64,000 nucleotides of DNA from a virus (IMGVR_UViG_3300021387_000106:45801-109800), one strand, 5' to 3'. Numbered from the stretch's first letter, positions 46,857 through 64,000 are shown. Made by a program: numbers and translations. Notes: generated by a model from the sequence alone, not told the origin.

Positions 46857-46914
46857 CAAAGATAAACACCTTTATTTAAAGGCATTGCGAATGATTTCTA
46901 AAATCTCGCCATTT
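46857..46914 (-). promoter_or_regulatory. Promoter with variant 22-bp motif upstream of the helicase operon
   Basis: Minus-strand TATCTTTG at 46857-46864; TTTCTAAAATCTCGCCATTT at 46895-46914 (18/20 match). Confidence 0.6.
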
Positions 46915-47389: not shown

Positions 47390-47554
47390 CAGTGCATCTA
47401 CTTAGTAGGTGTGCGCTGTTTGACGTTCTGAGGTTACTGCTAAGGCTGCTGAGGCACTTGCTGAGGCTCTGAGGCTCTTAGTAGACTACTCACGCAATAG
47501 GGCGCTCGTTCTTTGACTTATTTACATTGTTTCACTCTTTAATACATTATCATT

Positions 47555-48634: not shown

Positions 48635-48657
48635 CTTAAAACTCTCTTTCTAAGTTT

Positions 48658-48712
48658 GAGGCTAAGGCTTAACCAGTCTTAGCCTCTTTCTTACTTTCTT
48701 TTTTTTCTTTTC
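48658..48712 (+). terminator. Intrinsic terminator
   Basis: GAGGCTAAGGCT-TAACC-AGTCTTAGCCTC followed by a long T-rich tract. Confidence 0.7.
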
Positions 48713-49296
48713 TGAGTGAGGCACTTGCTTGTAAATAAGTCGAATTATTAAATATGTATGGTTACTAAAAAGGTTAAGGCTGAGGCACTGGCTGAGGCTG
48801 CTGCTTTTATTGTGTTCGATTCACAAAATATTTGCTATTACCTTTTTGTTTGGTTTTTATTTTCTGAGGCTGCTGCTGAGGAAAATAAATTTTAGTTTAC
48901 TTTGAAAATATTTTTTTCTTAGACTACACAAATAAAAAGGCTGCTCTTTGACAAAATGAAACGAAATAAATATTGTTTGGAAAAGTTTTCATTTAGATTT
49001 TATTCTTTTAGATTTTAATTTTCTTAGATTTTATTTCGTGAACACTGCAAGGCTATTACCAGATTTTACTTTTTTATAAAGATTGATCTTGCGAGCTTTG
49101 CAGAATTGATACAAGATATAATTCATAATTGAGTTTTATCAGATGCAGGAGAGTGCAATACGGCACTCTCCTTTGTTGTTTGGATTTTATTTTTTGTTTT
49201 GATTGGTTATTCCTGATTTCAAAATATTTTTTTGAGATTTGGATTTGAGTTCGATTCTCAATCTTAGCGCAATTAATTTTTAAAACTCAAAAGATT

Positions 49297-49521
49297 ATGA
49301 AAAGAAAAGATTACTATTTAGTTCGTGACAATATCTTAGGAATTGTCATTGGTGGTTTTACTGTGATCGCTGATTACGAGTTACCAATTTCCATTTCCAC
49401 AAAAACATATTTGCAATATGTGGAAAATAAGAGAAAAGCAATTTGCAGAGAAATGCACCTGAAAGCAAATTGTTTTGAATCTTGGTTAGTAGATTTAGTT
49501 ACCTACCGTAACCGCTTATAA
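49297..49521 (+). CDS. Hypothetical protein
   Basis: Preceded by the conserved TAAAACTCA...ATTATG leader. Confidence 0.65.
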   Translation: MKRKDYYLVRDNILGIVIGGFTVIADYELPISISTKTYLQYVENKRKAICREMHLKANCFESWLVDLVTYRNRL

Positions 49522-49662
49522 GATGTATAACTTAAAACTTAATTGAATTATGAAAAATCTATGTGAATTTGCCGAAAGTATTTTGGCACGGAACACGATC
49601 GAAACTTTTATTGAGATTATTTGCAGTTTGTCAGATGATGATGTAAAACAGATAATTGCAGG

Positions 49663-49971
49663 ATGAAAGTTTTGGATGATAGAAAGCGGTTAGACTATCA
49701 GCGTAGTTTAGCCGCACAATTTTTCTGCAAGAATTATTCGAGGGAGCAAAGATACCTGATTATTTTGCAGAGAGATTTGGAGAAAGGATTTCAAGCCATT
49801 ACGAGCTTGGGAATTGAGAAAGCGAAGTCTTTCCAGATATTTTATGATTTTCTTTTGGATTTTGAGAATCTGAATGAAAAGATGATTGAGTTTCGTTGGA
49901 GTGAAGATTTTCTGAATGAAAACGGAATTGACTATTCTGAATTGAAGAGATTATATCTCGCTGCGAATTAG
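49663..49971 (+). CDS. Hypothetical protein
   Basis: Coupled to an upstream 38-codon ORF (49550); its stop is the TAG of the hairpin loop. Confidence 0.65.
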   Translation: MKVLDDRKRLDYQRSLAAQFFCKNYSREQRYLIILQRDLEKGFQAITSLGIEKAKSFQIFYDFLLDFENLNEKMIEFRWSEDFLNENGIDYSELKRLYLAAN

Positions 49972-50017
49972 TTTTTGTGGCGAGGACTATTTATTCACTT
50001 TAAAACTCAATGACATT

Positions 50018-50305
50018 ATGAAAAAGAATCTGATTATTGTAGTGGTTACTGTTTTGTCGGTTTTCGCTATTGAGAGTGCGGTTTACTTTGGCTACTGGTG
50101 TAATAATCTCCACAAGAGATATTCTTTGGTGGTAAATCAGAATCGCAAAATGAGAAATGAGATTCGCAATTACGAGGAAATCTTGGATTCTATTGACAAC
50201 GTGCATCATCACGATTATTTGACAACGATTCGAGGTTACAAGGAATTGCGAGGTTACAATGAGATTCGCCCTGTTTATTCTTCTTTGCAGGTTGCTGCGA
50301 AGTAG
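50018..50305 (+). CDS. Hypothetical membrane-anchored protein
   Basis: N-terminal TM segment; follows a hairpin-leader element. Confidence 0.65.
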   Translation: MKKNLIIVVVTVLSVFAIESAVYFGYWCNNLHKRYSLVVNQNRKMRNEIRNYEEILDSIDNVHHHDYLTTIRGYKELRGYNEIRPVYSSLQVAAK

Positions 50306-50375
50306 AGAATGAATTAAAGATTGTAGCGGATTAGTTTCCGCTACGATTTCTATTTTCACTAATACATTATGAATT

Positions 50376-50663
50376 ATGAAAGCAAAGGATTTATTGAATT
50401 GGGTAGTAGATTTTAATCTCAATGGCGAGGATCTATTTTCCGTAGAGATTTCCGAGAGTGACGAATTTGAAAGTCAGAGTGATTTCATTGAGAAATTCTT
50501 TGGCTGTATTCCAGACAAGGAGATTCCGGCAGGAGATTACATTTACATTTGGTCTGACGTTTTGCCCTACGAGTTCTATGACAAGAAACTGGAGCAAAAA
50601 GCGGAGATTGCATTGAAAGCGCATGAGGATTACAAAATCTACCTTTTCCGAATTGAGGATTAA
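50376..50663 (+). CDS. Hypothetical acidic protein
   Basis: Follows a hairpin-leader element. Confidence 0.7.
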   Translation: MKAKDLLNWVVDFNLNGEDLFSVEISESDEFESQSDFIEKFFGCIPDKEIPAGDYIYIWSDVLPYEFYDKKLEQKAEIALKAHEDYKIYLFRIED

Positions 50664-50741
50664 GTACGATTATTCCTATTTGCTTGCAAAGTACGAGAAT
50701 TACTTTGCGAGTACGATTATAAACTCAAAAGTACGTGAATT

Positions 50742-51134
50742 ATGAATGAAAAGGTATTATCAATGGCAAACGATTCCGTTGCCTGGTATCTCAGAAACTT
50801 TAATGTTATTGGGATAGAGTACGAGAATGATTCGAGTTGGTTCTACGCTATTGGAAAGTACGAAAATTCTAATCAAGTGAATGTGTTATCGGTTGCGAAG
50901 AAAGATTCGGGCTGCAAGACTACTGTATTTGGGGATTTCAATTACTTTGCCATTCTCTATGCGTTACACGCTTGCGGATATTCTGCGAAATGGACTGCGA
51001 AAGGTTACGTGATGTGGCCCGTTTGGTATCTCAATCGTTTTGAAATGCAAAATTTCCTGATTGAGTACGACAAGATTATTTCAAAGTACGGATTTGATAG
51101 GCTATCGGTTGAAAGGAATACTTATCTCTCTTGA
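50742..51134 (+). CDS. Hypothetical protein
   Basis: Follows a hairpin-leader element. Confidence 0.7.
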   Translation: MNEKVLSMANDSVAWYLRNFNVIGIEYENDSSWFYAIGKYENSNQVNVLSVAKKDSGCKTTVFGDFNYFAILYALHACGYSAKWTAKGYVMWPVWYLNRFEMQNFLIEYDKIISKYGFDRLSVERNTYLS

Positions 51135-51194
51135 ATTATTCTGCAAGGATTAGTTTCCTTGCGGAGTACGATTTACTTTAATACATTATGAATT

Positions 51195-51419
51195 ATGAGA
51201 AAATTAGTTATCCTGACAATGGGCAGCGTTATTTTGTTGCCGTTCGTGTTCATTATCTGCAATTCTAATTGGATTTGTGGTATTCTTTCTTTGGTTGCTA
51301 TTTTGGCAATTACTATGACTGGAGATAGAAAGGACAGATTATTTTGGGGTTTGTACTGGAAGTATCTGAAATCTATCGTAAAGAAGTTGTTTCCATTACC
51401 AAAAGAGTATAGTTTATGA
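51195..51419 (+). CDS. Hypothetical two-TM protein
   Basis: Follows a hairpin-leader element; coupled to a 43-codon ORF at 51416-51547. Confidence 0.65.
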   Translation: MRKLVILTMGSVILLPFVFIICNSNWICGILSLVAILAITMTGDRKDRLFWGLYWKYLKSIVKKLFPLPKEYSL

Positions 51420-51628
51420 GGCAGCGTATTTGTGTGCAAACTCCCAATGGCGGATTTGCAGAGATCGCCGCTAAATGCGACGGAAAGAAATTGTGGACTG
51501 ATGGAATTAGATTTTGGCGAGGAAAGTTCTTGTGGTTTCCTTGGTAACTTATTGCTCTGAGCTGATTAGTTTCGGCTTGGAGTACGAGAAATTTATCTCA
51601 TATTGTTTAATTTAAAACTCGATTAATT

Positions 51629-52135
51629 ATGAAAAAGATTCAGAAAGAAGTCGTAATCAAGCGTTACGACACAATGTTTGTTGCCAACGATGGCACGGAG
51701 TTCACAACGGAAGAAGAGTGCAAGAAGTACGAAGAAAGTGCAAAGTGTGCTTTGATGGCACGTTACAATTTGCTTGTCATCAAGGAATCAGATTGCTTTT
51801 CCCTCTTTGGTTTTGGCTCTGACGAAGATGTTATCAATGTTGTAAAGGTTGAGTCTAAAGAAGATATAAATCTGATTCTGCAACTTTTGATTATCGAAAA
51901 TCCTTGGCATTACGATGAAAACAAGGCTGAAAATCCCGATGCTGCTGCAAGTAAGAAAGAAAATCTGAGAAAAGTAACTGAACGCCTGACGAAAGCATTG
52001 CAGGAAAAGGATTTGATTTTCATCGGACGTGGTTACGATTCTGATGGATTCTATTTCGAGGGAACTCGCAATGAGCATATCCGTGTGCTGGAGAATATCG
52101 GAAAAGAGAAATCGGAATCTGAAACTGGCGAATAA
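51629..52135 (+). CDS. Hypothetical protein
   Basis: FVANDGTEFTTEEECKKYE motif, common in small phage proteins; follows a hairpin-leader element. Confidence 0.75.
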   Translation: MKKIQKEVVIKRYDTMFVANDGTEFTTEEECKKYEESAKCALMARYNLLVIKESDCFSLFGFGSDEDVINVVKVESKEDINLILQLLIIENPWHYDENKAENPDAAASKKENLRKVTERLTKALQEKDLIFIGRGYDSDGFYFEGTRNEHIRVLENIGKEKSESETGE

Positions 52136-52207
52136 TCTATCTCTATTGTCGGAATGGAATTAGTTTTCTATTCCGATGCTATAAAACTCTAAAAGAAAGG
52201 AAATATT

Positions 52208-52345
52208 ATGAAGACGTTTGAACAGATTGCGTCACAATGTGAGCGCATTGCCAGACTTTACTACAAAGGTTTTGGCACAAAGAAGATGTTAGAAACGGCT
52301 GAGAGATTTTTCTTTTCTCAGCAGAAAGTCGGACTATGTTTTTAA
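52208..52345 (+). CDS. Small hypothetical protein (45 aa, below ORF-track cutoff)
   Basis: ATG follows the hairpin-leader element with loop at 52160. Confidence 0.5.
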   Translation: MKTFEQIASQCERIARLYYKGFGTKKMLETAERFFFSQQKVGLCF

Positions 52346-52356
52346 TCTGAAATATT

Positions 52357-52677
52357 ATGGATGCAATTAAGATTTCGCAAGAAAGTTTGGATGCTTTCAA
52401 GATTCAGAAAGAATCTCCATGTTGGCGAGAGGATGAAGTCTGCAATATGATTTCTGATTCTATCAATGAGCATTTTCGTGAAGAGAATAACGGATGCGAT
52501 TCTGACGTTTTCGTTGATGAAGTGATTGAGGATGGTGTGATTGCTTTGAATTGGCACACATTTTTAGATTGCTACGTTACGACTGACTACGTTACGAGAG
52601 TTGCAGCGTTTGTCTTTGAGAAATTCCCTGACGTTAAAACTATCATGTCGCCTTGCAAGGATTTTGAAAGGAATTGA
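52357..52677 (+). CDS. Hypothetical acidic protein
   Basis: ATTATG start; followed by a 47-codon ORF at 52680-52823. Confidence 0.65.
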   Translation: MDAIKISQESLDAFKIQKESPCWREDEVCNMISDSINEHFREENNGCDSDVFVDEVIEDGVIALNWHTFLDCYVTTDYVTRVAAFVFEKFPDVKTIMSPCKDFERN

Positions 52678-52888
52678 ATATGAAACAGATTGTTAAGAAT
52701 TTCCCTACTTTGCGGAAAGCGCAAAATTTCCTGCAAGGTTTGTATTCTCGCTACAATTATGTGAGATTGTCCGATTTTCCTAAATTCTCAGAAAATGGCG
52801 AATATGTTTTCACTGTTGACTGATTCCTTGACTTTGTGCGGATTAGTTTCCGCATGAAGTACGATTGTTTAACTCAAATGGATTAATT

Positions 52889-53068
52889 ATGGCTAAGATG
52901 TCTTTAAACAAACTGGTTGCTGTCAATTCGTACAATGCAAATAGTAATCTGATGTACGAATTGGAACGCAAGGGAGAAAAAGATAGTGTGCAATATCTTT
53001 GCTTGAAGAATGAGAATGAGCGTTTAGAAAAGCGTTATCCGAGTTTGCGCACAAATCTCTATTGCTGA
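52889..53068 (+). CDS. Hypothetical protein
   Basis: Start reassigned to the ATTATG after the hairpin. Confidence 0.6.
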   Translation: MAKMSLNKLVAVNSYNANSNLMYELERKGEKDSVQYLCLKNENERLEKRYPSLRTNLYC

Positions 53069-53127
53069 TTATATTTCCCTCTGATTAGATTCTGAGGGAA
53101 GTACAATTTAATTAAACTCAAACGATT

Positions 53128-53616
53128 ATGAATACAAACGATTTATGGAAGATTTTCACTACTGACAAAAGTATTGTGATTCTGACTGATGTGCCGAGAA
53201 ATTACCACAATGGCGACGGAGTTTATATCCTGATGAAACAATTGCAGGAGATATACGGAAGTAACCTTTGCAGTACACAAAAGTTTGATGAAAGATTCGA
53301 TAAGATTGAAGATTTCAATATCATTCTCAAAACTGGTTATAATCTCGACGGAAACAGATTGATTTGTGCGCATTTGTTCGATTTCGACCCTAAAACGAAT
53401 TTGCTTTTGGTAGATAATACCAAGAGTTTGCGGATGAAAGAAGATAACGAGTTTGTGTATCGTATTCAGAAAACGCAAATAAAATGTATTGATGGTTGGA
53501 ACGGATTGCGAAAGCACATTCTTTGGACTATGGGTAGAGATACCTGTTGGACTTTTTGGGGAGATGCACAATTTGGCGAACAAAAGATTATCTCACTTGA
53601 AAGAAAGTGCGCTTGA
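53128..53616 (+). CDS. Hypothetical protein
   Basis: Follows a hairpin-leader element. Confidence 0.7.
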   Translation: MNTNDLWKIFTTDKSIVILTDVPRNYHNGDGVYILMKQLQEIYGSNLCSTQKFDERFDKIEDFNIILKTGYNLDGNRLICAHLFDFDPKTNLLLVDNTKSLRMKEDNEFVYRIQKTQIKCIDGWNGLRKHILWTMGRDTCWTFWGDAQFGEQKIISLERKCA

Positions 53617-53677
53617 TTACTTTGGTGCAATTAGTTTTGCACCTAAGTACAATTTACTCACTTAAACATTATGAATT

Positions 53678-53950
53678 ATGATGTACGATTTCACTTTATT
53701 CTTTGAAGATTGCAATTCTAACTTTGCAGATTTCGATGAATTTGCAGAGAAGTGCGAGAACTTAGATTCAGTTTGTGATGTTGATTATGACAACGAGGAC
53801 GTTACTTTCTATGACTTTGCGTTTGGTTGTGACTATCGTCAAGGTTTCTGCGAAAAATCTCTCAATGCTGACAAGGATTTCAAGGATATGGCAAAACACC
53901 AGATCAAAGTTCAGAGCGAGTTTCGTTCTGCAATGGGAATGTGGTTTTAA
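53678..53950 (+). CDS. Hypothetical highly acidic protein
   Basis: Follows a hairpin-leader element; D/F-rich; followed by a 57-codon ORF at 53963-54136. Confidence 0.65.
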   Translation: MMYDFTLFFEDCNSNFADFDEFAEKCENLDSVCDVDYDNEDVTFYDFAFGCDYRQGFCEKSLNADKDFKDMAKHQIKVQSEFRSAMGMWF

Positions 53951-54187
53951 ATCTCAGAGAATATGAACGGAAAGAATTTCATTGTGGTGTATCAAGGAAT
54001 GTATTACACCAAACCGATGTGGGGACCGACATTTAGCCCTCACAAGAAAGATGCAACTCTTTTTACTGAAAAGCAGGCGAAAGAAGTTTGTCGTGATTTA
54101 CATGATTTCAAAGGAATCAGTTATCAAGCAGCGTGAGCGATTTGGGCATTAGTTTGCCCGAATCGTACCAATTAAAAACTCAATATT

Positions 54188-54379
54188 ATGGTTACAAAGA
54201 GTTACACCTACAAAGGTTATGAGATTCAGCGAAAAAGAGTAGTTGAATTGAAAAATGGACATTGGGAGCCAACAAAGCAATACGAGATTTATTCTTGTGG
54301 CTACATGATTCCCTGCATCGTTGATACGTTGAAAGAGGCGAAAGCTGAAATCAACCGAAGAATAGAATTATATTCATAA
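54188..54379 (+). CDS. Hypothetical protein
   Basis: Follows a hairpin-leader element; TLKEAKAEI motif. Confidence 0.65.
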   Translation: MVTKSYTYKGYEIQRKRVVELKNGHWEPTKQYEIYSCGYMIPCIVDTLKEAKAEINRRIELYS

Positions 54380-54455
54380 TTCGATAATGTATTTCCGGGT
54401 GCGCTCTATGAGAATAGTGCGTGCCTACTATTTATTAACTAAAACTCAGTGAATT

Positions 54456-54968
54456 ATGGAAAAATTAGCAGATTACGGAATCAGAATCATTAATCATGGC
54501 GAATGGAGTGACCCAGAAGTTCAATGGAAGAAATCAAGGTTTCAGACTTTGCTTTTCAACTATTGGGATTGTGTGGATTGTTTCGAGAATGACGATTACG
54601 ATTTTGACAACGAAGAAGATTGCGAATTGTTCTATCAGAATCTATTCGAGCTTACTCCAAGTGAGTATGATTATCCGCAAGTTTCTTACGAGTGGACTGT
54701 ATGGACTGATTCTGGCGACGGATTCTACGACGAAACTCTCTTTGATGATGCAGATTACTATAAAGTATATAAGCTATCTCCAAAGAAAGATTTCGTTTTG
54801 CACACGGCAGGGCAGGCATTAAAGCAGGCTTTGAGTTATGTTTTCGATTGCGGAATGAAGAATGTGGAAATTTCCGTTTTCCGTAGGGATGACAGACAGC
54901 GTGAGCGTGTTGCTCATTACATCATGCAGGGTTCTACTTTGCGAAATCAGATGAATTACACAAAGTGA
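54456..54968 (+). CDS. Hypothetical acidic protein
   Basis: Follows a hairpin-leader element. Confidence 0.7.
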   Translation: MEKLADYGIRIINHGEWSDPEVQWKKSRFQTLLFNYWDCVDCFENDDYDFDNEEDCELFYQNLFELTPSEYDYPQVSYEWTVWTDSGDGFYDETLFDDADYYKVYKLSPKKDFVLHTAGQALKQALSYVFDCGMKNVEISVFRRDDRQRERVAHYIMQGSTLRNQMNYTK

Positions 54969-55021
54969 GAGGGATTAGTTTCCCTTTCGCTTACTATTGT
55001 TTCACTAAAACTTTATGAATT

Positions 55022-55402
55022 ATGAGTAAATTACCTACGACTGGCAGAGAATTGCCAAGTCTTTACGTTACGATTATCCGTTCTTTCAGATGGACGCATT
55101 TCAATGGTACTGGAGAGGATAAATTTCCTGCAAAGAGCGTATTCTTTGAGATAATGAAGAAATATCGCTGCAAGAAACCTCAAACCGTTGCAAAGCACAT
55201 TCTAAAAGGCTACAAACCTTCCGCACATGAAAGAAAGTATTGCGCAAAGATTCTTACGGCTACACAATTCCTGAAAACGTTGCAGTTCATGCGCTACAAT
55301 GGCTATATGGAACGTGAACTTGCAAACATGATGATTCTTCCGCTTTCAGAATGGATTGTTTCGAGGACGAAAGAATATGATGAAGCGAAATGGTGTCTTT
55401 AA
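55022..55402 (+). CDS. Hypothetical basic protein
   Basis: Follows a hairpin-leader element. Confidence 0.7.
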   Translation: MSKLPTTGRELPSLYVTIIRSFRWTHFNGTGEDKFPAKSVFFEIMKKYRCKKPQTVAKHILKGYKPSAHERKYCAKILTATQFLKTLQFMRYNGYMERELANMMILPLSEWIVSRTKEYDEAKWCL

Positions 55403-55460
55403 ACTTTCGGGAGATTAGTTTCTCCCTGAGGTTCTACGTTTAACTTAACTCAATTTGATT

Positions 55461-55835
55461 ATGGAACATTTAACCGTTTATGTTTATCGTGACAAAACTA
55501 TTGGAGATTGCACTGCACATGGTGTTACGTCACGTCACGATAGAATTACGTTGCTTTGGGATTGTACTAAGACAGAAGCAATCAAGTATTGTGTTGATAA
55601 AGGAATCGACGTTGATGCTGCATTATGGCTGAATCCGAGAGTCCTTTGGAATGAATATTTGCCATTTGCAGAGCCATTGATTAAGCCAGCAGGTTCAGCA
55701 GGCCCAATGTTTGGTGGCAATTATATTTGCACAAGTGATTCTCGCTTTCCTTGTGTATGCGGAAAGTACGGCAAATATCCTATTCCCGTACATGACCGAT
55801 TTGAAACGCAGGAGTATTGCAACTCTATGGACTAA
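55461..55835 (+). CDS. Hypothetical phage protein
   Basis: GPMFGGNY..TSDSRF...PIPVHDRFE; start reassigned to the ATTATG. Confidence 0.7.
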   Translation: MEHLTVYVYRDKTIGDCTAHGVTSRHDRITLLWDCTKTEAIKYCVDKGIDVDAALWLNPRVLWNEYLPFAEPLIKPAGSAGPMFGGNYICTSDSRFPCVCGKYGKYPIPVHDRFETQEYCNSMD

Positions 55836-55893
55836 AACTTTCGGGCTATTAGTTTAGCCCAGAAGTTCAATGTTTCACTTAAAACTCAGAATT

Positions 55894-56130
55894 ATGTATT
55901 TAGAAACGACTTGTTGTGGGTGTGGAATCGAAAGATGGAACGCTCTAATGAAAGGAGCAAGAAAATGCTCTTACAAAAGACTGGTTGCACGTATAAAGAA
56001 AGAATTACCTGACTTGTACGAATCACTTGCATTGAATTTCTATAATCCTTGGGATGAACAATGCCAACAAACAAAGACGCATTTCATATTAGTACATTCG
56101 GGAATTGAGTATTTTATCCGCAAAAGTTGA
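55894..56130 (+). CDS. Hypothetical protein
   Basis: Start reassigned to the ATTATG after the hairpin. Confidence 0.65.
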   Translation: MYLETTCCGCGIERWNALMKGARKCSYKRLVARIKKELPDLYESLALNFYNPWDEQCQQTKTHFILVHSGIEYFIRKS

Positions 56131-56184
56131 GGGAGATTAGTTTCTCCCTCAACTACTATTGTTTCACTTAAAACTCATTGAATT

Positions 56185-57102
56185 ATGGAGAATTTTGAAG
56201 ATTTCAAGAAACGTAATGTTGGTTTCGATGAAGGCCGTTGGTATGGCTTGGACGAGTATTTTGACAAGACTATGCGTAAATGCTACGATGTGGCTCTGAA
56301 AGTAGAACAAACCTACAATGAATTGCATCCAAACATTAACGAGCCTCAGATTCTCGACATTGTGGAATTTGCAGACGATTTCGAGGTTTACAAGCGTGGA
56401 ATGATTTGCGAGAATCTTTATGGTAAAAGCGAGTTCGGTATGCTTTGTATTTGTGAACATGGTTGCTCTCACACAGATGGGAAATATTTCTCTACTGGTG
56501 GTGGTGCTTTCCGTCATATCCACAAATCTAAGTTGCGCTACGCTGGCGAAACTGAGAATGTAGTTTGGACTTGGGGTTGTTATGGTTCGGGCGCACATCA
56601 ATGTATATATTTCCCTCTGAAAGTTCGCAAATGGATTATTCCTTACGAGCAGCCAAAATTCGGCAGCAAAGTGTATATCAAGGGAAAGAACGCTAAAGAT
56701 ATGTACGGACGTGATTTAGATGCGGTTTGGATTGAGAATTTCGGTTCTTATTTCGGTCACGCTAAATCGTTCAATTCTATCAAGGCTTTCAAGGCATGGG
56801 CTGAATATGTTGGCTACAATAGTTATGCGTTTGACGGAACTTTTGAGCGTAGAAGTCAGCAGAAGATTCAACATCGTTGCATCGTTAAGATGGAAGATTT
56901 GCCAGAAAATGCAAAACCGATGAAAGTTATCGCTAATGGCAGAGTTCACGACGGATGGGTAGTAAACGACGGAATAACCATTACTGAGCTTTGGCTGAAC
57001 GCTTATGACCCTAACGAGGTACGACCTAAGTACGGCACAAAAGAATGGGATGATGAAATACAATTGTTCCACAAGTATTGTCGCAATCCTATGGGTGTTT
57101 AA
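56185..57102 (+). CDS. Hypothetical protein, possibly DUF4121-like
   Basis: STGGGAF...LRYAG...WTWGCYGSG...IYF pattern. The family assignment is from memory only. Confidence 0.6.
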   Translation: MENFEDFKKRNVGFDEGRWYGLDEYFDKTMRKCYDVALKVEQTYNELHPNINEPQILDIVEFADDFEVYKRGMICENLYGKSEFGMLCICEHGCSHTDGKYFSTGGGAFRHIHKSKLRYAGETENVVWTWGCYGSGAHQCIYFPLKVRKWIIPYEQPKFGSKVYIKGKNAKDMYGRDLDAVWIENFGSYFGHAKSFNSIKAFKAWAEYVGYNSYAFDGTFERRSQQKIQHRCIVKMEDLPENAKPMKVIANGRVHDGWVVNDGITITELWLNAYDPNEVRPKYGTKEWDDEIQLFHKYCRNPMGV

Positions 57103-57164
57103 CTCTCTTTGCTTTGCAGGGATTGATTTCTCTGCAAGGTACAATAATTCTAAAACTTTCAATT

Positions 57165-57710
57165 ATGAGACAAGAAGTGTATGATTTGAGGAAATTGGGC
57201 GATAATGCCTATAAGTTCCTGAATGAATGTAACGGACATACTGGAGTATTGTTCGAGAAGAATGTAGAATCTCACATTAACGAAATGTGGCGGTTGTGGC
57301 ACTCTCTTGATGGCACTTGGGATGAATCTTATCGTTACACAAAAGATTATCTTACGAAGATGTGCGAGGATATGCGTAAAAAGAAAATCCGCACAAAAGG
57401 TAAGTGTTTCCCTTTAAAGTCGGGTAATTCTATCTGCAATCAAATGAATCGTATTGTTGTGCTTGCAGGTGGTTATTCCTATGGCAATCCTAATGTTCAT
57501 CTGAAAAGAGCAATCAGTATCGTAGAGCATTACGGAAAGAATATTGCAGCAACAAAGGAATGGAAAGATGCCTATAAAGCTGGATATGATTGGGTAACAT
57601 CTGACATTACAAAGGTAGGATTTAGTTCCGTTGAATCAGAAGCCGTTACATCGGGCTATGCAAAGGCTTACGCTGTAAAGTTTCCCCGTGAGGTCTATGC
57701 AGCACATTAA
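57165..57710 (+). CDS. Hypothetical protein
   Basis: Start reassigned to the ATTATG after the hairpin. Confidence 0.7.
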   Translation: MRQEVYDLRKLGDNAYKFLNECNGHTGVLFEKNVESHINEMWRLWHSLDGTWDESYRYTKDYLTKMCEDMRKKKIRTKGKCFPLKSGNSICNQMNRIVVLAGGYSYGNPNVHLKRAISIVEHYGKNIAATKEWKDAYKAGYDWVTSDITKVGFSSVESEAVTSGYAKAYAVKFPREVYAAH

Positions 57711-57769
57711 CAACTTTGCAGGGATTAGTTTCCCTGCATTGTTCTAATTTAACTTAAACTCAAAGAATT

Positions 57770-58003
57770 ATGGAAGTAAAGAATTTATTCGTGAATTTCG
57801 AGAATGGCGAGAATTGCTTGGTTTACACCTACGATTTGTCTGAGGATGAAGTAAAGCAGTGGTGCGAGAAAGCAACCGACAACAAGGTAATTGAAGTATA
57901 TCATGTTCCTCAAAACGATTTGCAATACTACTGCATCGACGGAAGAGTTTGGGCAGATACGCCAGAACAAGTAGCCAAAGTCAGAAAGTATTTGGCAAAC
58001 TAA
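57770..58003 (+). CDS. Hypothetical protein
   Basis: Follows a hairpin-leader element. Confidence 0.65.
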   Translation: MEVKNLFVNFENGENCLVYTYDLSEDEVKQWCEKATDNKVIEVYHVPQNDLQYYCIDGRVWADTPEQVAKVRKYLAN

Positions 58004-58059
58004 ATGCTTAGAGGGATTAGATTCCCTCTGAGCTTCAATAAACTTTAAAACTTACAATT

Positions 58060-58467
58060 ATGGAGAAAACAAATTTATGGCCCAGACCATTAGACGAAAA
58101 GAATCTAACAACGGACTGGATTGAAGAAATGTTTGAAAGTGGCGGTTGGATGCCTACACCTTACTGCAAGAATGGTACATATCAGTATCTCACTTACATT
58201 GGCGAAACACTGGTTAAAGTTTCGTGGAAATTTGGCGAGAATCAGCTATCATTTATCGTACTTGTAGATATTGAGGGTTGTGATAAATATCTCAGTGAAA
58301 AGGCAAAGACAGCCATTGATAAGATTATTTCTATGATTGAGAATTGGGAGAAAGAAGTCAATGAGTACGCATCTGAGAGTTGTGAGGATATGCTTACTAT
58401 CCGCTACAATGAGGAAAAGAATCGTATTGATTTATTCTTCTACTGGTTGCCAAGCGAATCTCGCTAA
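58060..58467 (+). CDS. Hypothetical acidic protein
   Basis: Follows a hairpin-leader element. Confidence 0.7.
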   Translation: MEKTNLWPRPLDEKNLTTDWIEEMFESGGWMPTPYCKNGTYQYLTYIGETLVKVSWKFGENQLSFIVLVDIEGCDKYLSEKAKTAIDKIISMIENWEKEVNEYASESCEDMLTIRYNEEKNRIDLFFYWLPSESR

Positions 58468-58525
58468 TCGCTTGCACTCTCTTAATTGAGGGTGCGAGTA
58501 CAATTACATTTAAACTCAAAGAATT

Positions 58526-58666
58526 ATGGATGAATACAGAAAAGAACAAATCGAGGCTTTGGAAAAAGCTATTGAGTATTGTGAGAAAGGCGGTTGTACT
58601 GACGTTATACCTCGTATCAACCTGAGAATACACTGGTTAAAAGAAAATTGCAATTTCTACGATTAA
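58526..58666 (+). CDS. Small hypothetical protein (46 aa, below ORF-track cutoff)
   Basis: ATG follows the hairpin-leader element with loop at 58482. Confidence 0.55.
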   Translation: MDEYRKEQIEALEKAIEYCEKGGCTDVIPRINLRIHWLKENCNFYD

Positions 58667-58678
58667 AATGCTGATTCT

Positions 58679-58894
58679 ATGACTATCGGTTACTTTTACA
58701 AAGAGTATGTGATAAACGGAACAAAGTATTTCGTTTCTCAGTATGCAGATAAACCACATTTCGTAAAGCTATGGGAATATGGCTACGTTTATGAGAACTA
58801 TCGTATTGGCAATATGGTTTATCCTACAATGTGCGTCTCTATCAGTCGTGGGCTACGCTCACGTCCGAATCTCAAAAGACTATTCGGTGGTTAG
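58679..58894 (+). CDS. Hypothetical protein
   Basis: Its stop is the TAG of the hairpin loop at 58891. Confidence 0.6.
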   Translation: MTIGYFYKEYVINGTKYFVSQYADKPHFVKLWEYGYVYENYRIGNMVYPTMCVSISRGLRSRPNLKRLFGG

Positions 58895-58931
58895 TTCCAC
58901 TGGATAGCACATTAACTTAAACTCAGTAATT

Positions 58932-59198
58932 ATGAAGAAATTTAAATTCTACAAATGCCTATCAAGTCATGGTGTTTTCTTGGTAGCAAGAGATTGGGCG
59001 AATAACATTCTTGCAGAGTATTATCCACTCTACAAGGAGTTTCATCTAATCGACAAAAGCTATCCTGAACTGGAGCGTTATATGCGCTCTTACCATTTCG
59101 ACCATCAATTCGACGAGATTCCGAGATTCCGTCAGATGAACGAGTTCTTACTAAACAAAAGGAGAAATAACTATGCACTACAAGGATTACGACATTAA
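58932..59198 (+). CDS. Hypothetical protein
   Basis: Follows a hairpin-leader element. Confidence 0.6.
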   Translation: MKKFKFYKCLSSHGVFLVARDWANNILAEYYPLYKEFHLIDKSYPELERYMRSYHFDHQFDEIPRFRQMNEFLLNKRRNNYALQGLRH

Positions 59199-59523
59199 CA
59201 TTCGCATCAACATCAAGAGTTGGTTGTTAGGTGCTTACTCTCTTAGGAAGTTGCAGGAGTTTACCTATCTCGCAAGCGAGTTTGGTATGCACCCAAAGAC
59301 AAAGAATTGCTTTGAATACGGAAAGGCAGCATGATTAAGATTAGCGGACAGAGGATTAATCAAGAATATCTCAAACAAGATTTCTATCCTCACGAAATGG
59401 CAAATGGCACTATCATTATGGTTTCCTACGATGGTCGCTATTATTATTGATTTGTTCTTTTACCTACAAAGCTATCCTGATTAGGTTCGGGATTGCTTAC
59501 CATTAACTTTAACTCAATGAATT

Positions 59524-59841
59524 ATGTTACGGAAAGAACTTGTTGCAAAATTGGAATCTTTGGTACATAACAGATATTCCAAAGAGAGTTTAACCAAGAG
59601 GATTAATGAAATCTTTGGTGTAAATGACATCGAAATTGACTGGCATTGCTTTGAGGAAGAGCCATTCCTTACTGATTTTAATGCTATGTTCACTACCTAC
59701 GACAACGAAAAGGTTGCAAAGAATCTACGTGGAGATTTCGACATCTACTATTTAGAGTGCAAACAACCCAATCACATGAGCATGGAAGTTTACGTTACTG
59801 AGGTCGGCTACGAATTTAAGTACCGCCATTTCGATAAGTAA
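59524..59841 (+). CDS. Hypothetical protein
   Basis: Follows a hairpin-leader element. Confidence 0.7.
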   Translation: MLRKELVAKLESLVHNRYSKESLTKRINEIFGVNDIEIDWHCFEEEPFLTDFNAMFTTYDNEKVAKNLRGDFDIYYLECKQPNHMSMEVYVTEVGYEFKYRHFDK

Positions 59842-59916
59842 CATTACCTCTCTAATCTTACCCTTATCAGTTTAAGGGTGGGATTCCAATATTTATTAAC
59901 TTAAACTCAATAGATT

Positions 59917-60105
59917 ATGAACGAAAAATTAATGTGGCTTTTGGAGATTCACTTTAATCTCTTTCACTCTGATTTAATCAGCAGAGCATTTCACGATGAC
60001 AATGTATCTCTCGAAGATTTCATTTCCGGCTGCGAGAAAATAGGACTTGCAGAGAATGAAGATGAAGATTGCGAGTTTGTACCTGATGAATTTAAAAACG
60101 TGTAA
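59917..60105 (+). CDS. Hypothetical acidic protein
   Basis: Follows a hairpin-leader element. Confidence 0.6.
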   Translation: MNEKLMWLLEIHFNLFHSDLISRAFHDDNVSLEDFISGCEKIGLAENEDEDCEFVPDEFKNV

Positions 60106-60108
60106 GCT

Positions 60109-60606
60109 ATGAATAAGGAAGAAATTATCAAGCAGGCTAAAGAAGAGTTCAAAGATTTCTGTGCCGTTTTCTTGGGTAAGTCACTCGACGAAGTAGATAA
60201 TATCGTTCAGAGAAACGAAAGATTCTGTTTCGGAAGTGCAGATCCAAACACTGAGGAAGATATGCGTGATATTAATTACAAGCATATTCTTGCTACCGTT
60301 TGCCGAATTAACGGCAAAATGCGAATCTCAGAAAATGTGGAGTATTATCCTGATGATAGTTCAGAGTGTATTCGACTTGAATTGCCAGTGCTTGCAAAGC
60401 GTACTATAAAGATTGAAGTAGAAATCGAGTACGAGTATAACGTAAATCATCGTGCTTTGGTTGGTATGGATGAATCTTACATCGACGCTTGCGCAAAGGA
60501 CTTAGCCATTCAGCCTAATGGTAACTCTATCGTGGATGGTGTGAAACTGATTCACGTCTGCAATCGTGAAGAAAATGCCTGGTGGCTTATCAATAACGAT
60601 AAGTAA
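60109..60606 (+). CDS. Hypothetical protein
   Basis: Starts 3 bp after the upstream stop. Confidence 0.7.
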   Translation: MNKEEIIKQAKEEFKDFCAVFLGKSLDEVDNIVQRNERFCFGSADPNTEEDMRDINYKHILATVCRINGKMRISENVEYYPDDSSECIRLELPVLAKRTIKIEVEIEYEYNVNHRALVGMDESYIDACAKDLAIQPNGNSIVDGVKLIHVCNREENAWWLINNDK

Positions 60607-60661
60607 CTACTGGAGAGCGTGATTAGTTTCACGCTTTCTTGCTAATATAAACTCAATAATT

Positions 60662-60952
60662 ATGGAAACAAAAGAATGGTACATCAAGCATGGTTATACG
60701 AGTGAAGAGTATGCTAACCTCATGCGCTTTCACTCAGACCATAAGCGACGCATGGAAAAGCGACGTGCAATAACGAGAATCTGCAATCAGTTAGGACTAC
60801 AATTCCTTTCGTGTGATAGGAGTGTGAACGCTGATAGCTTAGAGAGTATCAAGGCTGCAATATCGGTGCTTAGAAGTAAGAAAATAGAGCCAGTAAAGGT
60901 ATTAGTATCTACGTGTGGTAGTTATCAGTATTCCGCTTTCTATGATTTCTGA
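60662..60952 (+). CDS. Hypothetical protein
   Basis: Follows a hairpin-leader element. Confidence 0.65.
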   Translation: METKEWYIKHGYTSEEYANLMRFHSDHKRRMEKRRAITRICNQLGLQFLSCDRSVNADSLESIKAAISVLRSKKIEPVKVLVSTCGSYQYSAFYDF

Positions 60953-61005
60953 GGGTGCAATCAGTTTTGCACTCCCAGACTATGTTTCACTAAACGTTAT
61001 GAATT

Positions 61006-61251
61006 ATGGCAAAGGTTACTGTTATTTATCTTAGTGTGAATCCAAGTTTCTATGACGTGCATAAATTAGCGAAGTTATCCTTTGACGAGGCAAAGAAGTT
61101 CATTGAGGATGACACTATCGGAGCTTGCTCTCACAAAGTAGTTGAACTGGATATGACGAAGTTTGCAGACTACAATTATTGTGCTGATGGTGCTGACTTA
61201 GGCGACTGGACTGATTCACTCTTAATGTGGATTCGGGTTAGTGGAGATTAG
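61006..61251 (+). CDS. Hypothetical protein
   Basis: Follows a hairpin-leader element; its stop is the TAG of the next loop. Confidence 0.65.
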   Translation: MAKVTVIYLSVNPSFYDVHKLAKLSFDEAKKFIEDDTIGACSHKVVELDMTKFADYNYCADGADLGDWTDSLLMWIRVSGD

Positions 61252-61291
61252 TTTCTCCACCTTCCCCATAAATACTTAAACTCAAACGATT

Positions 61292-61546
61292 ATGAAAACA
61301 AAGTACGAAAACGGATTACTCACATTTACTGAGGATTCTAAGAACGAAAAGATTTTTAGTGTCAATGGTACGAAGTATGGCGACGGAGATAGATTTGTTC
61401 GCCTGATGACTGAAAATGAGTTGAAGGAAGAAATTCCTGACGATTCCGATTGGAGTATGCCATTCGACAAAATGGAAGTAGGAGATACATCTACCTATGG
61501 CTACTGGTTCTACGACAAAGCAAACGTTATTGTTCGTGTTGCCTGA
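61292..61546 (+). CDS. Hypothetical protein
   Basis: Follows a hairpin-leader element. Confidence 0.65.
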   Translation: MKTKYENGLLTFTEDSKNEKIFSVNGTKYGDGDRFVRLMTENELKEEIPDDSDWSMPFDKMEVGDTSTYGYWFYDKANVIVRVA

Positions 61547-61608
61547 CTACTGAGGAAAAGCGGATTAGTTTCCGCTTTCCTGCAATTATTAACTTAAACT
61601 CAATGATT

Positions 61609-61992
61609 ATGGATAAAGATTATTCTCACATGGCAGGTAAGCACATCGTTATTGATGGTGTGAATTACTTTAGTAATGAGTATTTCGGCGACGGACTTTC
61701 AAACGGCTACGTTTACAAGAATGAGCAAGCCTTTTGCGAGAATCCTGATGAAGTATGTTACATACCAGAAGCCGCTTTCTCTGATGCTACGCCAGTAACT
61801 ATCGACGGAGTGGATTACTACTCACAAGAGGAAGTTGGCGGTTACTCTCGAAACGACCTAAAGGATTTAGTGACAGACGAAGAAGGAAACTATTTCGAGG
61901 ATTCAGAAGGAACTCTTATCGACGAAGAGATTCTTTTCTACTCTATCTTTTGGTGTTGCCCTGAAACAAGGTTGAACGAAATATACGATTGA
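61609..61992 (+). CDS. Hypothetical highly acidic protein
   Basis: Start reassigned to the ATTATG; internal IDGVxY repeat. Confidence 0.7.
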   Translation: MDKDYSHMAGKHIVIDGVNYFSNEYFGDGLSNGYVYKNEQAFCENPDEVCYIPEAAFSDATPVTIDGVDYYSQEEVGGYSRNDLKDLVTDEEGNYFEDSEGTLIDEEILFYSIFWCCPETRLNEIYD

Positions 61993-61994
61993 CT

Positions 61995-62249
61995 ATGAAA
62001 AGAGAAAAAGTAAAAGAATTGCTTACTGAGCTTATCGAGAGAGATTTCACTATCGAAGAGATTTCAAACCTCATGGGCGACGTGAAAAATTATCTCGACG
62101 AAAAGAGAGAATCTGAGCGTAAAGAGGAAGATGAAGAATATCGGAAAATTCATGCTACAAGTATTCCTCTCTATCGTAAATGGTTGCAAGAAACTCTTGA
62201 TTCGTATGGACTTGACTACACTATTGAAGATTTTGAAGAAGAGTTCTGA
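61995..62249 (+). CDS. Hypothetical acidic protein
   Basis: Directly follows the upstream stop. Confidence 0.65.
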   Translation: MKREKVKELLTELIERDFTIEEISNLMGDVKNYLDEKRESERKEEDEEYRKIHATSIPLYRKWLQETLDSYGLDYTIEDFEEEF

Positions 62250-62312
62250 CTATCGGTTAAGCAGATTAGATTCTGCTTAATCACTATTATTTACCTTTAA
62301 AAGTTGTGAATT

Positions 62313-62615
62313 ATGGAACAGAATCAAATTTGCGTATTGTTTTGGGTAAAGTTTACTTTCAACTACCCCGACATCAAAGAAGTAATCAAGTGGATTTGTG
62401 AGAAAACCGACAAAAACTGGCTCTACGACCATCTTTTGAACAAATTCTATCACTTGTACGACACATTCGGCAGTCATGCAGTTATGGGAATGTTCTACTG
62501 CGAAATCGACAAGGATTTGCGCGACGCTCTCACGGAATACGCTCTGACTGTTTGGGCTCCCGTTGGTATGTGCCATACATACGAGGAAGTTAAAGGCCTG
62601 CTTGGAATCAAGTAA
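62313..62615 (+). CDS. Hypothetical protein
   Basis: Follows a hairpin-leader element. Confidence 0.7.
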   Translation: MEQNQICVLFWVKFTFNYPDIKEVIKWICEKTDKNWLYDHLLNKFYHLYDTFGSHAVMGMFYCEIDKDLRDALTEYALTVWAPVGMCHTYEEVKGLLGIK

Positions 62616-62682
62616 AGCAATCTCCAGTTCCTTTAGGTAGGACTGGAGAACGAATTTAGTATTAACTTAAACTCATTGAATT

Positions 62683-63132
62683 ATGAAATTTATCACAACT
62701 TTAACAGACATCACTCACGATGACTTAGTAAATCTGCTTTGTACTGCAACGTATGGTAGTAATTACTTTATGTGTGCTATCAAGAAAGCTGACTATTATG
62801 GTACTGAACTTGAAAATCCTGATGATTGCCGAGAAGATAAATGGGCGAAAGTCCTGCTATCGGGCAAGCCTATCATTGTCAGAGATTACTATGCAGAAGA
62901 TGACAAAGATTTCTACGGAAACTTGCCGCATGATTACGATTGGAACAAGGAATGTATGAACTACACCGTCACGCTCGACGACATCAAGAAAGGACTTGAA
63001 AGAATTTTCCGTGAAGGTGGTTGGGGTGCATCTTACGTTATGGACTTGGTAGAGGATAACGGAGGGTTTGACTTGGACGAAGCGGAATCTGTATTGCAGC
63101 GTATCATTTTCGGTCAAGAAATCTACGGCTAA
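62683..63132 (+). CDS. Hypothetical acidic protein
   Basis: Follows a hairpin-leader element; C-terminal D...AESVLQ..IFGQEIYG. Confidence 0.7.
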   Translation: MKFITTLTDITHDDLVNLLCTATYGSNYFMCAIKKADYYGTELENPDDCREDKWAKVLLSGKPIIVRDYYAEDDKDFYGNLPHDYDWNKECMNYTVTLDDIKKGLERIFREGGWGASYVMDLVEDNGGFDLDEAESVLQRIIFGQEIYG

Positions 63133-63189
63133 CAACTGAGGGAGATTAGTTTCTCCCTTGGTTACTATACTCACTTAAACTTATGAATT

Positions 63190-63408
63190 ATGAGAAGAAT
63201 TGATTTAATCAAATGTAAGGTTGCAAGATTGGAAGTGCTTACTGGCATTGACTTTCAAGTGCTTGGTTGTAATGGAGAGTATAGTGTAACTACTAAAAGT
63301 GGAGTTCCTATTACGGCTTTTAACTACATGGGCTACTATCGTAAATCCAAAGACTTAGAAATCTATCTCGACGGAGTGATTGCAGGACTTGAATTTAATC
63401 AGAAGTAG
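63190..63408 (+). CDS. Hypothetical protein
   Basis: Follows a hairpin-leader element. Confidence 0.65.
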   Translation: MRRIDLIKCKVARLEVLTGIDFQVLGCNGEYSVTTKSGVPITAFNYMGYYRKSKDLEIYLDGVIAGLEFNQK

Positions 63409-63410
63409 TT

Positions 63411-63638
63411 ATGTATATCGTTAAGACTAACTATCCAATGGCTATGCACGATGTTGCAGAGTTCAAAAGAAAACGTGACGCAATGCGACGCTTTGCGAGA
63501 TTCCAAAGGTTCTTTGATAAGAATCGTAATCCCTACAAGTTATTCATACGAAATGACGGAAAGAAGCCATTGAGAGGCAGAATCCAAGTGGAGTATGGCG
63601 GTTTTTACTATTACGTTGAACTTTATAAGAAGGACTGA
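63411..63638 (+). CDS. Hypothetical basic protein
   Basis: Tightly spaced in the operon. Confidence 0.6.
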   Translation: MYIVKTNYPMAMHDVAEFKRKRDAMRRFARFQRFFDKNRNPYKLFIRNDGKKPLRGRIQVEYGGFYYYVELYKKD

Positions 63639-63640
63639 CT

Positions 63641-63862
63641 ATGATGTTAGACAGAGAACAATTGTCATGTGACCACGAAATCGCATTGACTAACCTAATT
63701 GAACTCGTCAGAGATTTGGGTCTTTTCGAGGAAGATGAAAGCGATGACACGTCGCTAATCACAACTGGAAAGACTCTCAATCTCGAAACGTTTTCAAAGA
63801 ATGACTGGCTATTATGCCTTGATGCTATTGGGGAGAAGGAAAATCCCTTCACAAAGGGTTGA
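63641..63862 (+). CDS. Hypothetical acidic protein
   Basis: Tightly spaced; its stop lies in the left arm of the next hairpin. Confidence 0.6.
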   Translation: MMLDREQLSCDHEIALTNLIELVRDLGLFEEDESDDTSLITTGKTLNLETFSKNDWLLCLDAIGEKENPFTKG

Positions 63863-63915
63863 GGTGGTTAATTCCACCTCTGCCTACTATTGTTTAACTC
63901 AAAACTCTATGAATT

Positions 63916-64000
63916 ATGGCAAACTTAGATTTAATCCAGAAGCGTTTCAATGAAACAAGAAAGATTTTCGGACACAGCGACGAGATTACAACAGCCTCAG
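63916..64000 (+). CDS. Hypothetical protein (truncated by window edge)
   Basis: ATG follows the hairpin-leader element with loop at 63868. Confidence 0.55.
   Translation, partial: MANLDLIQKRFNETRKIFGHSDEITTAS

Follow-up and report, generated by a model that had tools for sequence, protein, structure and literature searches.

The 64,000-nucleotide stretch analysed here (IMGVR_UViG_3300021387_000106:45801-109800, referred to as the window) forms the last part (64 of 109.8 kb) of a complete IMG/VR virus record, which has a direct terminal repeat of 107 bp. It harbors a long array of hairpins interspersed among small genes on the plus strand. The siphovirus-like phage of about 110 kb encodes a terminase, a portal, a major head protein and a 3286-aa tape-measure protein, and its small early genes, about 45 in number, are separated by about 35 copies of an intergenic junction, which is the subject of this study. 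Thirty-one sense-strand hairpins were found in the window, thirty of them within 49956-63885 and an extra one, with a TCAG tetraloop, at 49686-49715, and four further copies are located beyond the window end. The original prediction, which was made from the sequence of the window, had placed the end of the array at 63918; the array in fact runs past the 107-bp terminal repeat for about 6 kb more, to genome position ~5950. Positions given below are those of the window unless they are designated as genome positions; the genome containing the window is termed G000, related phages are termed G001, G002, G006 and G007, and L-numbers denote contigs, among which L015 corresponds to G006 and L114 to G007.

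The organization of the array is highly regular. Each intergenic gap of at least 38 nt contains one hairpin, and a hairpin stands after the last open reading frame (ORF) of every cassette, starting anywhere from 18 nt before to 19 nt after the upstream stop codon, which falls inside the 5' arm or the loop in seven copies. The element is strand-specific, and its occurrence once per cassette, as had been described beforehand, was confirmed. The loop tallies were reproduced identically by a recount of the roughly 30 stem-loops, namely TTAGTT in 18 copies, TTAGAT in three, TTAATT, TCAGTT, TTAGGT and the GAGAA type in two each, and TTGATT in one, and the two copies that had been quoted as examples were recovered at 56125-56154 and 54137-54166.

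The 32 G000 copies were aligned, and 94.5% of the cells were found to be paired compared with 51.2% (sd 2.2) in shuffles, which agrees with the earlier statement that the stems differ from copy to copy and keep their pairing. Two-sided changes are present at all 12 stem pairs, and registers slid by 1-3 columns pair only 40-53%. Among the stem pairs, 284 are Watson-Crick, 50 are G-U and 11 are A-C, and the large excess of G-U over A-C indicates that the fold has been selected in the plus-sense RNA, where its mean folding energy amounts to -16.2 kcal/mol. The pairwise identity is 0.87 in the loop versus 0.35 in the arms, so that the conserved loop on a covarying stem, another feature of the original prediction, holds for this genome. 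The closing pairs are semi-conserved (A-U in 28 and G-C in 20 of the 32 copies), and so are the outer stem bases (ACTTT...AAAGT).

The hairpin occupies 30 nt in total and is followed by an unpaired N-C dinucleotide. All 32 aligned copies have the C at this second position, as do nearly all copies in G001 and G002; it also follows the hairpins of G006, in a scan that required it. In two copies with 11-6-11 geometry (61554-61581, loop TTAGTT; 62255-62282, loop TTAGAT), the C shifts along with the stem base, and G is avoided in the 5' flank, so that the C stays single-stranded. A lower stem is absent, and pairing between the flanks does not exceed background (0.5 or less). Directly after the stem comes N-C-N-A in place of a U-run, and then a U-rich tail with a mean of 4 U in 10 nt. 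In many hairpins the motif AGTACGA(T) makes up the stem base; it is also encountered within certain loops and, as four or five close direct copies, in single intergenic regions (50663-50742; L149:5480-5600), and it may be a binding site.

The individual copies in the window, all on the plus strand, vary around this ground plan. The loop TTAGTT is carried by the plain hairpins at 50319-50348, 51138-51167, 52148-52177, 52831-52860, 53619-53648, 55403-55432, 55837-55866 and 60611-60640, by the two previously quoted copies, of which the one at 56125-56154 reaches -20.6 kcal/mol, and by the copy at 51554-51583, which contains four G-U pairs. The TAG of the same loop serves as the stop codon of the upstream ORF in the 12-6-12 hairpin at 49956-49985 and again at 61236-61265, where the outer stem is weak, and at 58879-58908; an upstream stop codon is accommodated within the 5' arm at 54963-54992 (TGA, loop TTAGTT) and at 60949-60978 (loop TCAGTT). 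Variant loops are displayed at 53073-53102 (TTAGAT, with one T-T mismatch), 57111-57140 (TTGATT) and 59855-59884 (TCAGTT), and the copy at 62621-62649, with one bulged T, the loop TTAGGT and a following AC, was recognized by eye and missed by the covariance model. The GAGAA type is represented by a 12-7-12 hairpin with the loop CGAGAAT at 50682-50712, which lies among four AGTACGA copies (covariance model E=0.004), and by a 12-6-12 hairpin with the loop TGAGAA at 54397-54426, whose G006 ortholog shows compensatory inner-stem changes. The first copy, at 49686-49715, combines a 13-bp stem with the TCAG tetraloop and a following AC (E=3.5e-4), and its ortholog in G006 likewise exhibits compensatory changes.

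The signal resides in the framed structure. Counted without regard to structure, TTAGTT is as frequent in the window as expected (47 versus 47.5); the departure from randomness lies in plus-strand copies of the hexamer that are enclosed by a 12-bp stem. A genome-wide search for hairpins of this loop class, with a minimum stem of 6 bp, gave 32 on the plus strand and four on the minus strand; 28 of the plus-strand hairpins belong to the array or its continuation, and a covariance model built from the 32 copies matches the window only on the plus strand, at 49684-63893. The Rfam check that had been proposed returned no family at the gathering score over the whole window and nothing relevant at E<=10 over 49000-64000.

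Hairpins of this kind also stand singly at gene ends outside the cassette series. The hairpin at genome 5937 comes after the last plus-strand gene, which faces convergent genes, and no start block follows it. Three more copies are situated outside the array on the other strand, one after the SSB gene (genome 23015), one closing the tRNA-Ser/non-coding region (genome 27236), and one just upstream of that tRNA. The region in question is a 1.2-kb non-coding stretch on the minus strand (genome 27000-28250; L147:7000-8250) that contains tRNA-Ser(GCT) and two hairpins sharing the loop CTTGTGAAAGTC; it terminates in the isolated TTAGTT hairpin, and the tRNA was the only Rfam family matched there. In addition, a 12-6-12 hairpin with the loop ATAGTA, followed by G-C-T-A-T-T, lies at 30158-30187 on the minus strand just upstream of the tape-measure gene, so the geometry of 30 nt plus N-C occurs at least once among the late genes.

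The array is conserved across a clade of phages. Those with a primase 38-69% identical carry the same co-oriented arrays in genomes of 105-110 kb, and their hairpins adopt 13-4-13, 12-6-12 or 11-8-11 frames, such that the total is 30 nt in all relatives regardless of the loop size. Array hairpin lengths peak at 30 nt (84 cases) and 32 nt (46 cases), peaks that are not seen in the rest of the genome. In the complete genomes G001 and G006, the covariance model gave 12 matches, all within 35.5-48.0 kb, and eight, all within 36.9-48.1 kb, respectively, in each case on one strand only. The loops of G001 and G002 are TTAATT or TTAAAT (TTAAWT), together with a block containing CCAATC, ATAATA and similar sequences, those of G006 are TTAATT, GAGA and GNRA, and in more distant relatives 13-bp stems carry GNRA tetraloops, 12-bp stems carry ACGAWA or ACAATA hexaloops, and 11-bp stems carry 8-nt loops. 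An orthologous hairpin whose stem has been kept presents TTAGTT in G000 and TGGAAT in G006. The idea that the loop is a universal recognition feature is thus contradicted by the sister phages, which place other loops in the same 30-nt frame; several loop classes can coexist in one genome, and one class dominates each genome. A pattern scan of viral contigs retrieved 113 stretches, which were mostly single chance matches, and real arrays were recognized only in L015 and L114.

Downstream of the hairpin, a second module is constructed by a rigid block of about 27 nt that comprises a TTCAC box, an A-rich leader and the ATG. In G000, G001, G002 and G006, the distance from TTCAC or a close variant (xxCAC) to the ATG is 20-23 nt and that from TAAA to the ATG is 14-16 nt, while between 3 and 14 nt separate the stem end from TTCAC. 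The region at 56155-56187 on the plus strand provides an example, in which A-C, a spacer, the TTCAC box and an A-rich leader (TTAAAACTCA...) lead to the ATG. A TTCAC-type box was found in about 18 of 29 copies, a similar block after the hairpin precedes the first gene of most cassettes, and wherever an array copy precedes a gene, hairpin, TTCAC block and ATG come in this order. The two modules are separable: a start block without a hairpin stands before the first array gene (47555), and the block is missing where a gene comes second in its cassette and where the terminal hairpin closes the array. Late genes too are preceded by an A-run at -12 to -16, which suggests that this run is probably a general translation-initiation context. 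In L170, three tandem AATAACTTAAT-like repeats enlarge the spacer between the hairpin and the start block (L170:6498-6560, a variant of 63163-63190), an expansion that shows the spacer length to be plastic. The sequence TAC.ATT at the stem base was considered as the -10 box of each cassette and rejected, because its distance to the TTCAC...ATG block ranges from 3 to 14 nt and because copies lacking a start block retain the N-C.

Comparison of related genomes, which had been suggested as a check for breakpoints at the element, located cassette exchange at the junctions. Between G001 and G002, the junctions persist as 60-70-nt islands between unrelated genes, and 12 of 27 BLAST homology-block ends fall inside the junction windows, which cover 13% of the array (P=7e-5). 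Strain L170, 98% identical to the window, differs from G000 by five cassette replacements or indels, and seven junctions form the seams. The seam lies inside the 3' arm at 57713-57742 (loop TTAGTT), where a G-C pair has undergone a compensatory change to A-U, within the hairpin at 58005-58034 (TTAGAT), 10 nt upstream of the hairpin at 59469-59498 (TTAGGT), 3 nt past the stem at 63134-63163 (TTAGTT), and exactly at the stem/AC boundary at 63856-63885 (TTAATT), the last copy before the array extends past the window end. The hairpin at 58879-58908 (TTAGTT) combines a seam with a compensatory inserted T-A pair, and at 58470-58499 (TTAATT) the junction was kept from stop codon to ATG with both flanking genes replaced. 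The stop codon and the ATG being seam positions as well, at least six positions are represented, and this variability agrees with homologous or illegitimate exchange among look-alike junctions rather than with cutting at a specific site.

On balance, each intergenic unit is probably a composite junction, in which a 3'-end hairpin is joined to the promoter and leader of the next cassette and the whole is used as a recombination seam. The first module would most likely act in the plus-sense early RNA, where the stable 30-nt hairpin and the unpaired N-C would form or protect the 3' end of the upstream message, by attenuating transcription as a partial intrinsic terminator, by blocking 3'-exonucleases, or by both. 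The second module would most likely supply a promoter and transcription start for the host RNA polymerase, along with the translation-initiation region of the next cassette, with a leader of the Bacteroidetes type. The junctions resemble one another, and for this reason they can serve as seams for replacing, inserting and deleting whole cassettes. The anatomy of the junctions, their covariation, strand and modularity, their conservation in the clade and the exchange of cassettes at them are shown directly, whereas termination or 3'-end formation and promoter activity are what we infer. A 3'-end element plus promoter and leader is the most economical account of four features, namely that the hairpins are located at gene ends, that they fold in the sense strand, that their tails are U-rich, and that in the relative L128 the same junction carries a T8 run directly after the hairpin and then AGTACGAT...TTCAC.

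The original prediction had stated that the stem lacks a U-tract, which is correct in that no U-run abuts it, whereas the tail is U-rich and about 10 of the 31 copies pass a simple and lenient terminator scan (26 sites versus 10.2, sd 2.3, expected). Searches of the phage proteins for sigma-70 region 2 (PF04542) gave no match, and neither did those for a T7-type RNA polymerase (PF00940), for which the positive control was silent too; PF08281 produced one weak match (E=0.003) in a 63-aa helix-turn-helix protein adjoining the isolated hairpin at genome 23015. The 3286-aa tape-measure protein showed no DxDxD or other polymerase-like motif and no PDB relative. With no phage RNA polymerase or sigma factor found, transcription by the host polymerase is expected.

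Several observations weigh against the composite-junction model. The four nt beside the stem are N-C-N-A and not U, which makes efficient canonical termination doubtful, and the late-region terminators of the same phage (49147-49172 and 48658-48686) have U-runs directly after the stem. Promoter-like sites of the sigma-70 consensus number 52 versus 46.6 expected, and the proposed promoter has no sigma-70 match. The promoter consensus of Bacteroidetes is TAnnTTTG/TTTG; the proposed promoter resembles its -7 box only approximately, and no conserved -33 element was detected upstream of it. Three features moreover go beyond a plain terminator and are not explained by the model: the length is always 30 nt, the unpaired C is invariant, and the loop is conserved far above the stem. 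That a single loop class should dominate each genome is left unaccounted for as well. The constant length could reflect descent without indels, yet one compensated pair insertion has been seen, in the L170 counterpart of 58879-58908.

The unexplained length and the C are the starting point of the main rival, which corresponds to the processing-site candidate of the original prediction and which we consider doubtful. According to it, one or a few long early transcripts would be cut at each hairpin by a nuclease that measures a 13-layer helix and needs the unpaired N-C, or, as a variant, the hairpin would mimic a tRNA acceptor/T-arm minihelix and be a substrate of RNase P, RNase Z or a comparable enzyme of the host. 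A cut on the 3' side would leave the upstream message capped by the hairpin; the early mRNAs of T7 are known to be left as hairpin-capped messages by RNase III cutting. The total fixed at 30 nt across the 13-4-13, 12-6-12 and 11-8-11 frames argues for such a ruler, although descent without indels could yield the same constancy. Also in its favor, the C at +2 is invariant, unpaired, and tracks the stem base rather than the promoter block, the helix ends sharply without a lower stem, the U-run does not abut the stem, and the cassettes are all co-oriented, as a polycistronic transcript requires. However, the cassette-specific TTCAC block suggests one promoter per cassette, the lower stem of the T7 type for RNase III is lacking, and an RNase P-type cut on the 5' side would make non-stop messages of the seven hairpins with an internal stop codon. 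An invariant C74 is an anti-determinant for RNase Z, which speaks against that enzyme. For RNase P, the geometry is that of model hairpin substrates (PMC11143913), in which a 12-bp acceptor plus T stem functions as the measuring device and is followed by the discriminator base and C74. Against this, no tRNA or other Rfam family matched at E<=10, the loops of 4, 6 and 8 nt are not T-loop-like (UUCRANY), C75 (position +3) is variable, and the +1/72 pair is A-U or G-U, not G-C.

A bolder version of this thought, which we regard as unlikely, is that the hairpin and its N-C constitute a length-measured RNA punctuation and not a terminator, the 13-layer helix being a tRNA minihelix mimic or the substrate of a ruler nuclease that cuts at the stem base. 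If this were true, a long early transcript would be converted into single-cassette messages, each with a 3' hairpin cap, the loop class would be tuned to a phage-specific factor, and a system resembling tRNA punctuation would operate in a bacteriophage of Bacteroidota.

The conserved loop lends itself to another proposal, the RNA operators of the original prediction, in which a phage RNA-binding protein would recognize the loop and the top of the stem and thereby regulate the early cassettes jointly through translation shut-off, mRNA stability or antitermination. The proposal is possible but weak, and we assign it a low probability. The disparity between loop and arm identity (0.87 versus 0.35), the semi-conserved closing pairs and the dominance of one loop class in each genome are all compatible with it, and the replacement of TTAGTT by TGGAAT on a kept stem between G000 and G006 fits a genome-specific selection of the loop. 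YUNR is the pattern of a U-turn, and UUAG and UUAA conform to it. On the other hand, loop classes coexist and persist (TTAAWT, CCAATC, ATAATA and others in G001; TTAATT, GAGA and GNRA in G006), and the loops of orthologous G001 and G002 junctions differ at about the background rate. The hairpin lies 20-45 nt upstream of the ATG and so does not overlap the initiation site, Pfam and PHROG scans of the larger array proteins brought up no RNA-binding candidate, and no RNA that could act in trans by pairing with the loop or with AGTACGA was found beyond chance.

The exchange of cassettes at the junctions might call to mind attC-like DNA sites, whose folded plus strand would be the substrate of a tyrosine recombinase that inserts and excises cassettes. 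The original prediction noted that no integrase gene appears in the window, and this holds within its borders; just outside, however, a tyrosine recombinase gene of the generic Phage_integrase fold resides at genome 4574-5425. In G000, G001 and G002 it comes last or second to last among the array genes (36-37% identity), in G000 it adjoins the gene of an FtsK-like translocase (genome 2632-4038), and 12-bp inverted arms around 6 bp, with semi-conserved outer stem bases, do resemble a recombinase core site. Nevertheless, the seams lie at many different positions relative to the hairpin, the arm sequences are unconserved (0.35), attC R/L boxes are absent, single hairpins stand at gene ends elsewhere in the genome, and each cassette appears to carry its own start block. 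The recombinase scores 27.3 bits on TIGR02249 versus the integron-integrase cut-off of 265, and LoVEphage possesses ParA and the same small recombinase/integrase at the matching place, yet no hairpin array, which points to a plasmid-like role in partition and resolution. This reading is accordingly very improbable.

Hairpin promoters as in N4, in which an extruded DNA hairpin would be read by an RNA polymerase starting near the conserved A-C at the stem base, are hardly credible, because the fixed distance from stem base to A-C and the hairpin before almost every cassette of an early-gene region are set against the lack of any virion or phage RNA polymerase among the matches (the PF00940 control being silent as well), a G-U bias that puts the fold on the non-template strand, with A-C mismatches that would weaken the template-strand arm, stems of 12-13 bp and loops of 4-8 nt where the N4 promoter hairpins have a stem of 5-7 bp and a loop of 3 nt, a hairpin at genome 5937 with nothing downstream to transcribe, and a rigid block tied to the ATG and not to the hairpin.

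Concerning the host, the portal is 43% identical to the portals of Bacteroides LoVEphage, BI-TP1 and Phocaeicola PV4-TP1, the G000 genes have A-rich leaders without Shine-Dalgarno sequences, and DNA identical to G000 is present in ENA metagenome assemblies whose sample labels read as sheep rumen. Of the Logan and ENA contigs with array genes, those identical to G000 add no information, and contig ends were left out of the evidence. From the portal identity, the missing Shine-Dalgarno sequences and these labels, we infer that the host belongs to the Bacteroidales. The sole match in a search of contigs for the host was Amphibacillus, which was judged irrelevant, and near-identical DNA was not found in the GenBank phage collection.

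The distal end of the array (genome 23-5919, past the terminal repeat) encodes a ddrB-ParB-domain protein of 574 aa, an FtsK/SpoIIIE-like ATPase of 468 aa and the tyrosine recombinase of 283 aa, which suggests a plasmid-like module for partition and dimer resolution. The heptamer GCTGAGG occurs 37 times at 47448-48881, all on the plus strand (5.4 expected), and fills a 359-aa Ala/Glu-rich gene (47555-48634) and its flanks; speculatively, these copies could be polar motifs that orient the FtsK-like translocase. A 19-nt motif, TTCTAAAATCTYGMCATTT, is part of a small inverted repeat and occurs at 19489-19507, 36360-36378 and 46896-46914 (0 expected), only in divergent or large non-coding regions ahead of the tail, packaging and replication/early blocks, and it probably functions as an operator or as an element of middle/late promoters. 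The tape-measure gene (20248-30108, minus strand) encodes 3286 aa, which implies an exceptionally long tail. Two array proteins (56185-57710) gave weak, sub-threshold matches to DUF4121 and LPD11, domains of conjugative-element and polyvalent proteins, and such matches would fit an anti-defence or host-takeover role of the cassettes.

The expression signals of Bacteroidales phages are almost unmapped. With its about 35 naturally varied copies of one compact junction, the array could become a source of parts for genetic work in Bacteroides or Prevotella. Meanwhile, it gives a single-nucleotide view of how early genes, probably devoted to host takeover or anti-defence, are swapped between rumen phage strains, and the 30-nt helix with its invariant unpaired C hints at a host or phage factor that measures hairpins.

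Among known systems, integron attC sites share with the array one imperfect palindrome at each cassette 3' end, a structure kept over sequence, and a tyrosine recombinase gene alongside. The array differs from them in lacking R/L core boxes and extrahelical bases, in its variable crossovers, non-integron recombinase and apparent own start signals, and in a hairpin that is much shorter, at 30 nt. The RNase III sites of T7 likewise place one hairpin at each gene boundary of a co-oriented early region, and the hairpin would here also stay on the upstream 3' end, whereas the present element has no lower stem or internal loop, its 12-13 bp are short for RNase III, and a start block apparently accompanies each cassette. 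With intrinsic terminators, the junction has in common a stable GC-rich sense-strand hairpin right after stop codons and, in many copies, a U-rich tail; unlike in them, the U-run is set off from the stem by N-C-N-A, and length and loop are constrained far beyond the needs of termination. The RNase P minihelix (PMC11143913) agrees in the 12-bp helix (13 bp with a tetraloop), the loop, the one unpaired base and the C, and differs in that the present hairpin measures 30 nt versus 31, has no T-loop, does not conserve the second C of CCA, begins with an A-U or G-U pair, includes stop codons in some copies and matches no tRNA covariance model.

The closest counterpart is the promoter early stem-loop (PeSL) of T4-type phages, known from RB49/phi1, T4/PST and KVP40/nt-1 (PMC2839356, PMC4122927), so that the element, which the original prediction had not recognized from any described family, does have a described architecture. 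For the PeSLs it was established by experiment that the stem-loop terminates transcription, that the promoter is active, and that crossovers take place in or next to the loop (PMC2839356). Both systems follow the order of stop codon, stem-loop, early start signal and ATG, both are present in many co-oriented copies between small orphan genes of a plastic early region, and in both the junctions form conserved islands between unrelated genes with crossovers in or next to the stem-loop. The differences are that the array belongs to a siphovirus-like phage of about 110 kb from Bacteroidota, that it lacks the sigma-70 -35/-10 pair, the Shine-Dalgarno sequence and the AT-rich UP region, that its start block begins 3-14 nt past the stem, and that its stems are unrelated in sequence, with a total of 30 nt, an invariant unpaired C and a genome-typical loop class. 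A sequence motif shared with the T4-type PeSLs was not found in the array, and the likeness is best read as an analogy of design, not as homology or descent. It suggests that portable junctions arose by convergent evolution, and it would extend the PeSL principle, known from T4-like myoviruses that infect Proteobacteria, to an unrelated group of phages with hosts in another phylum.

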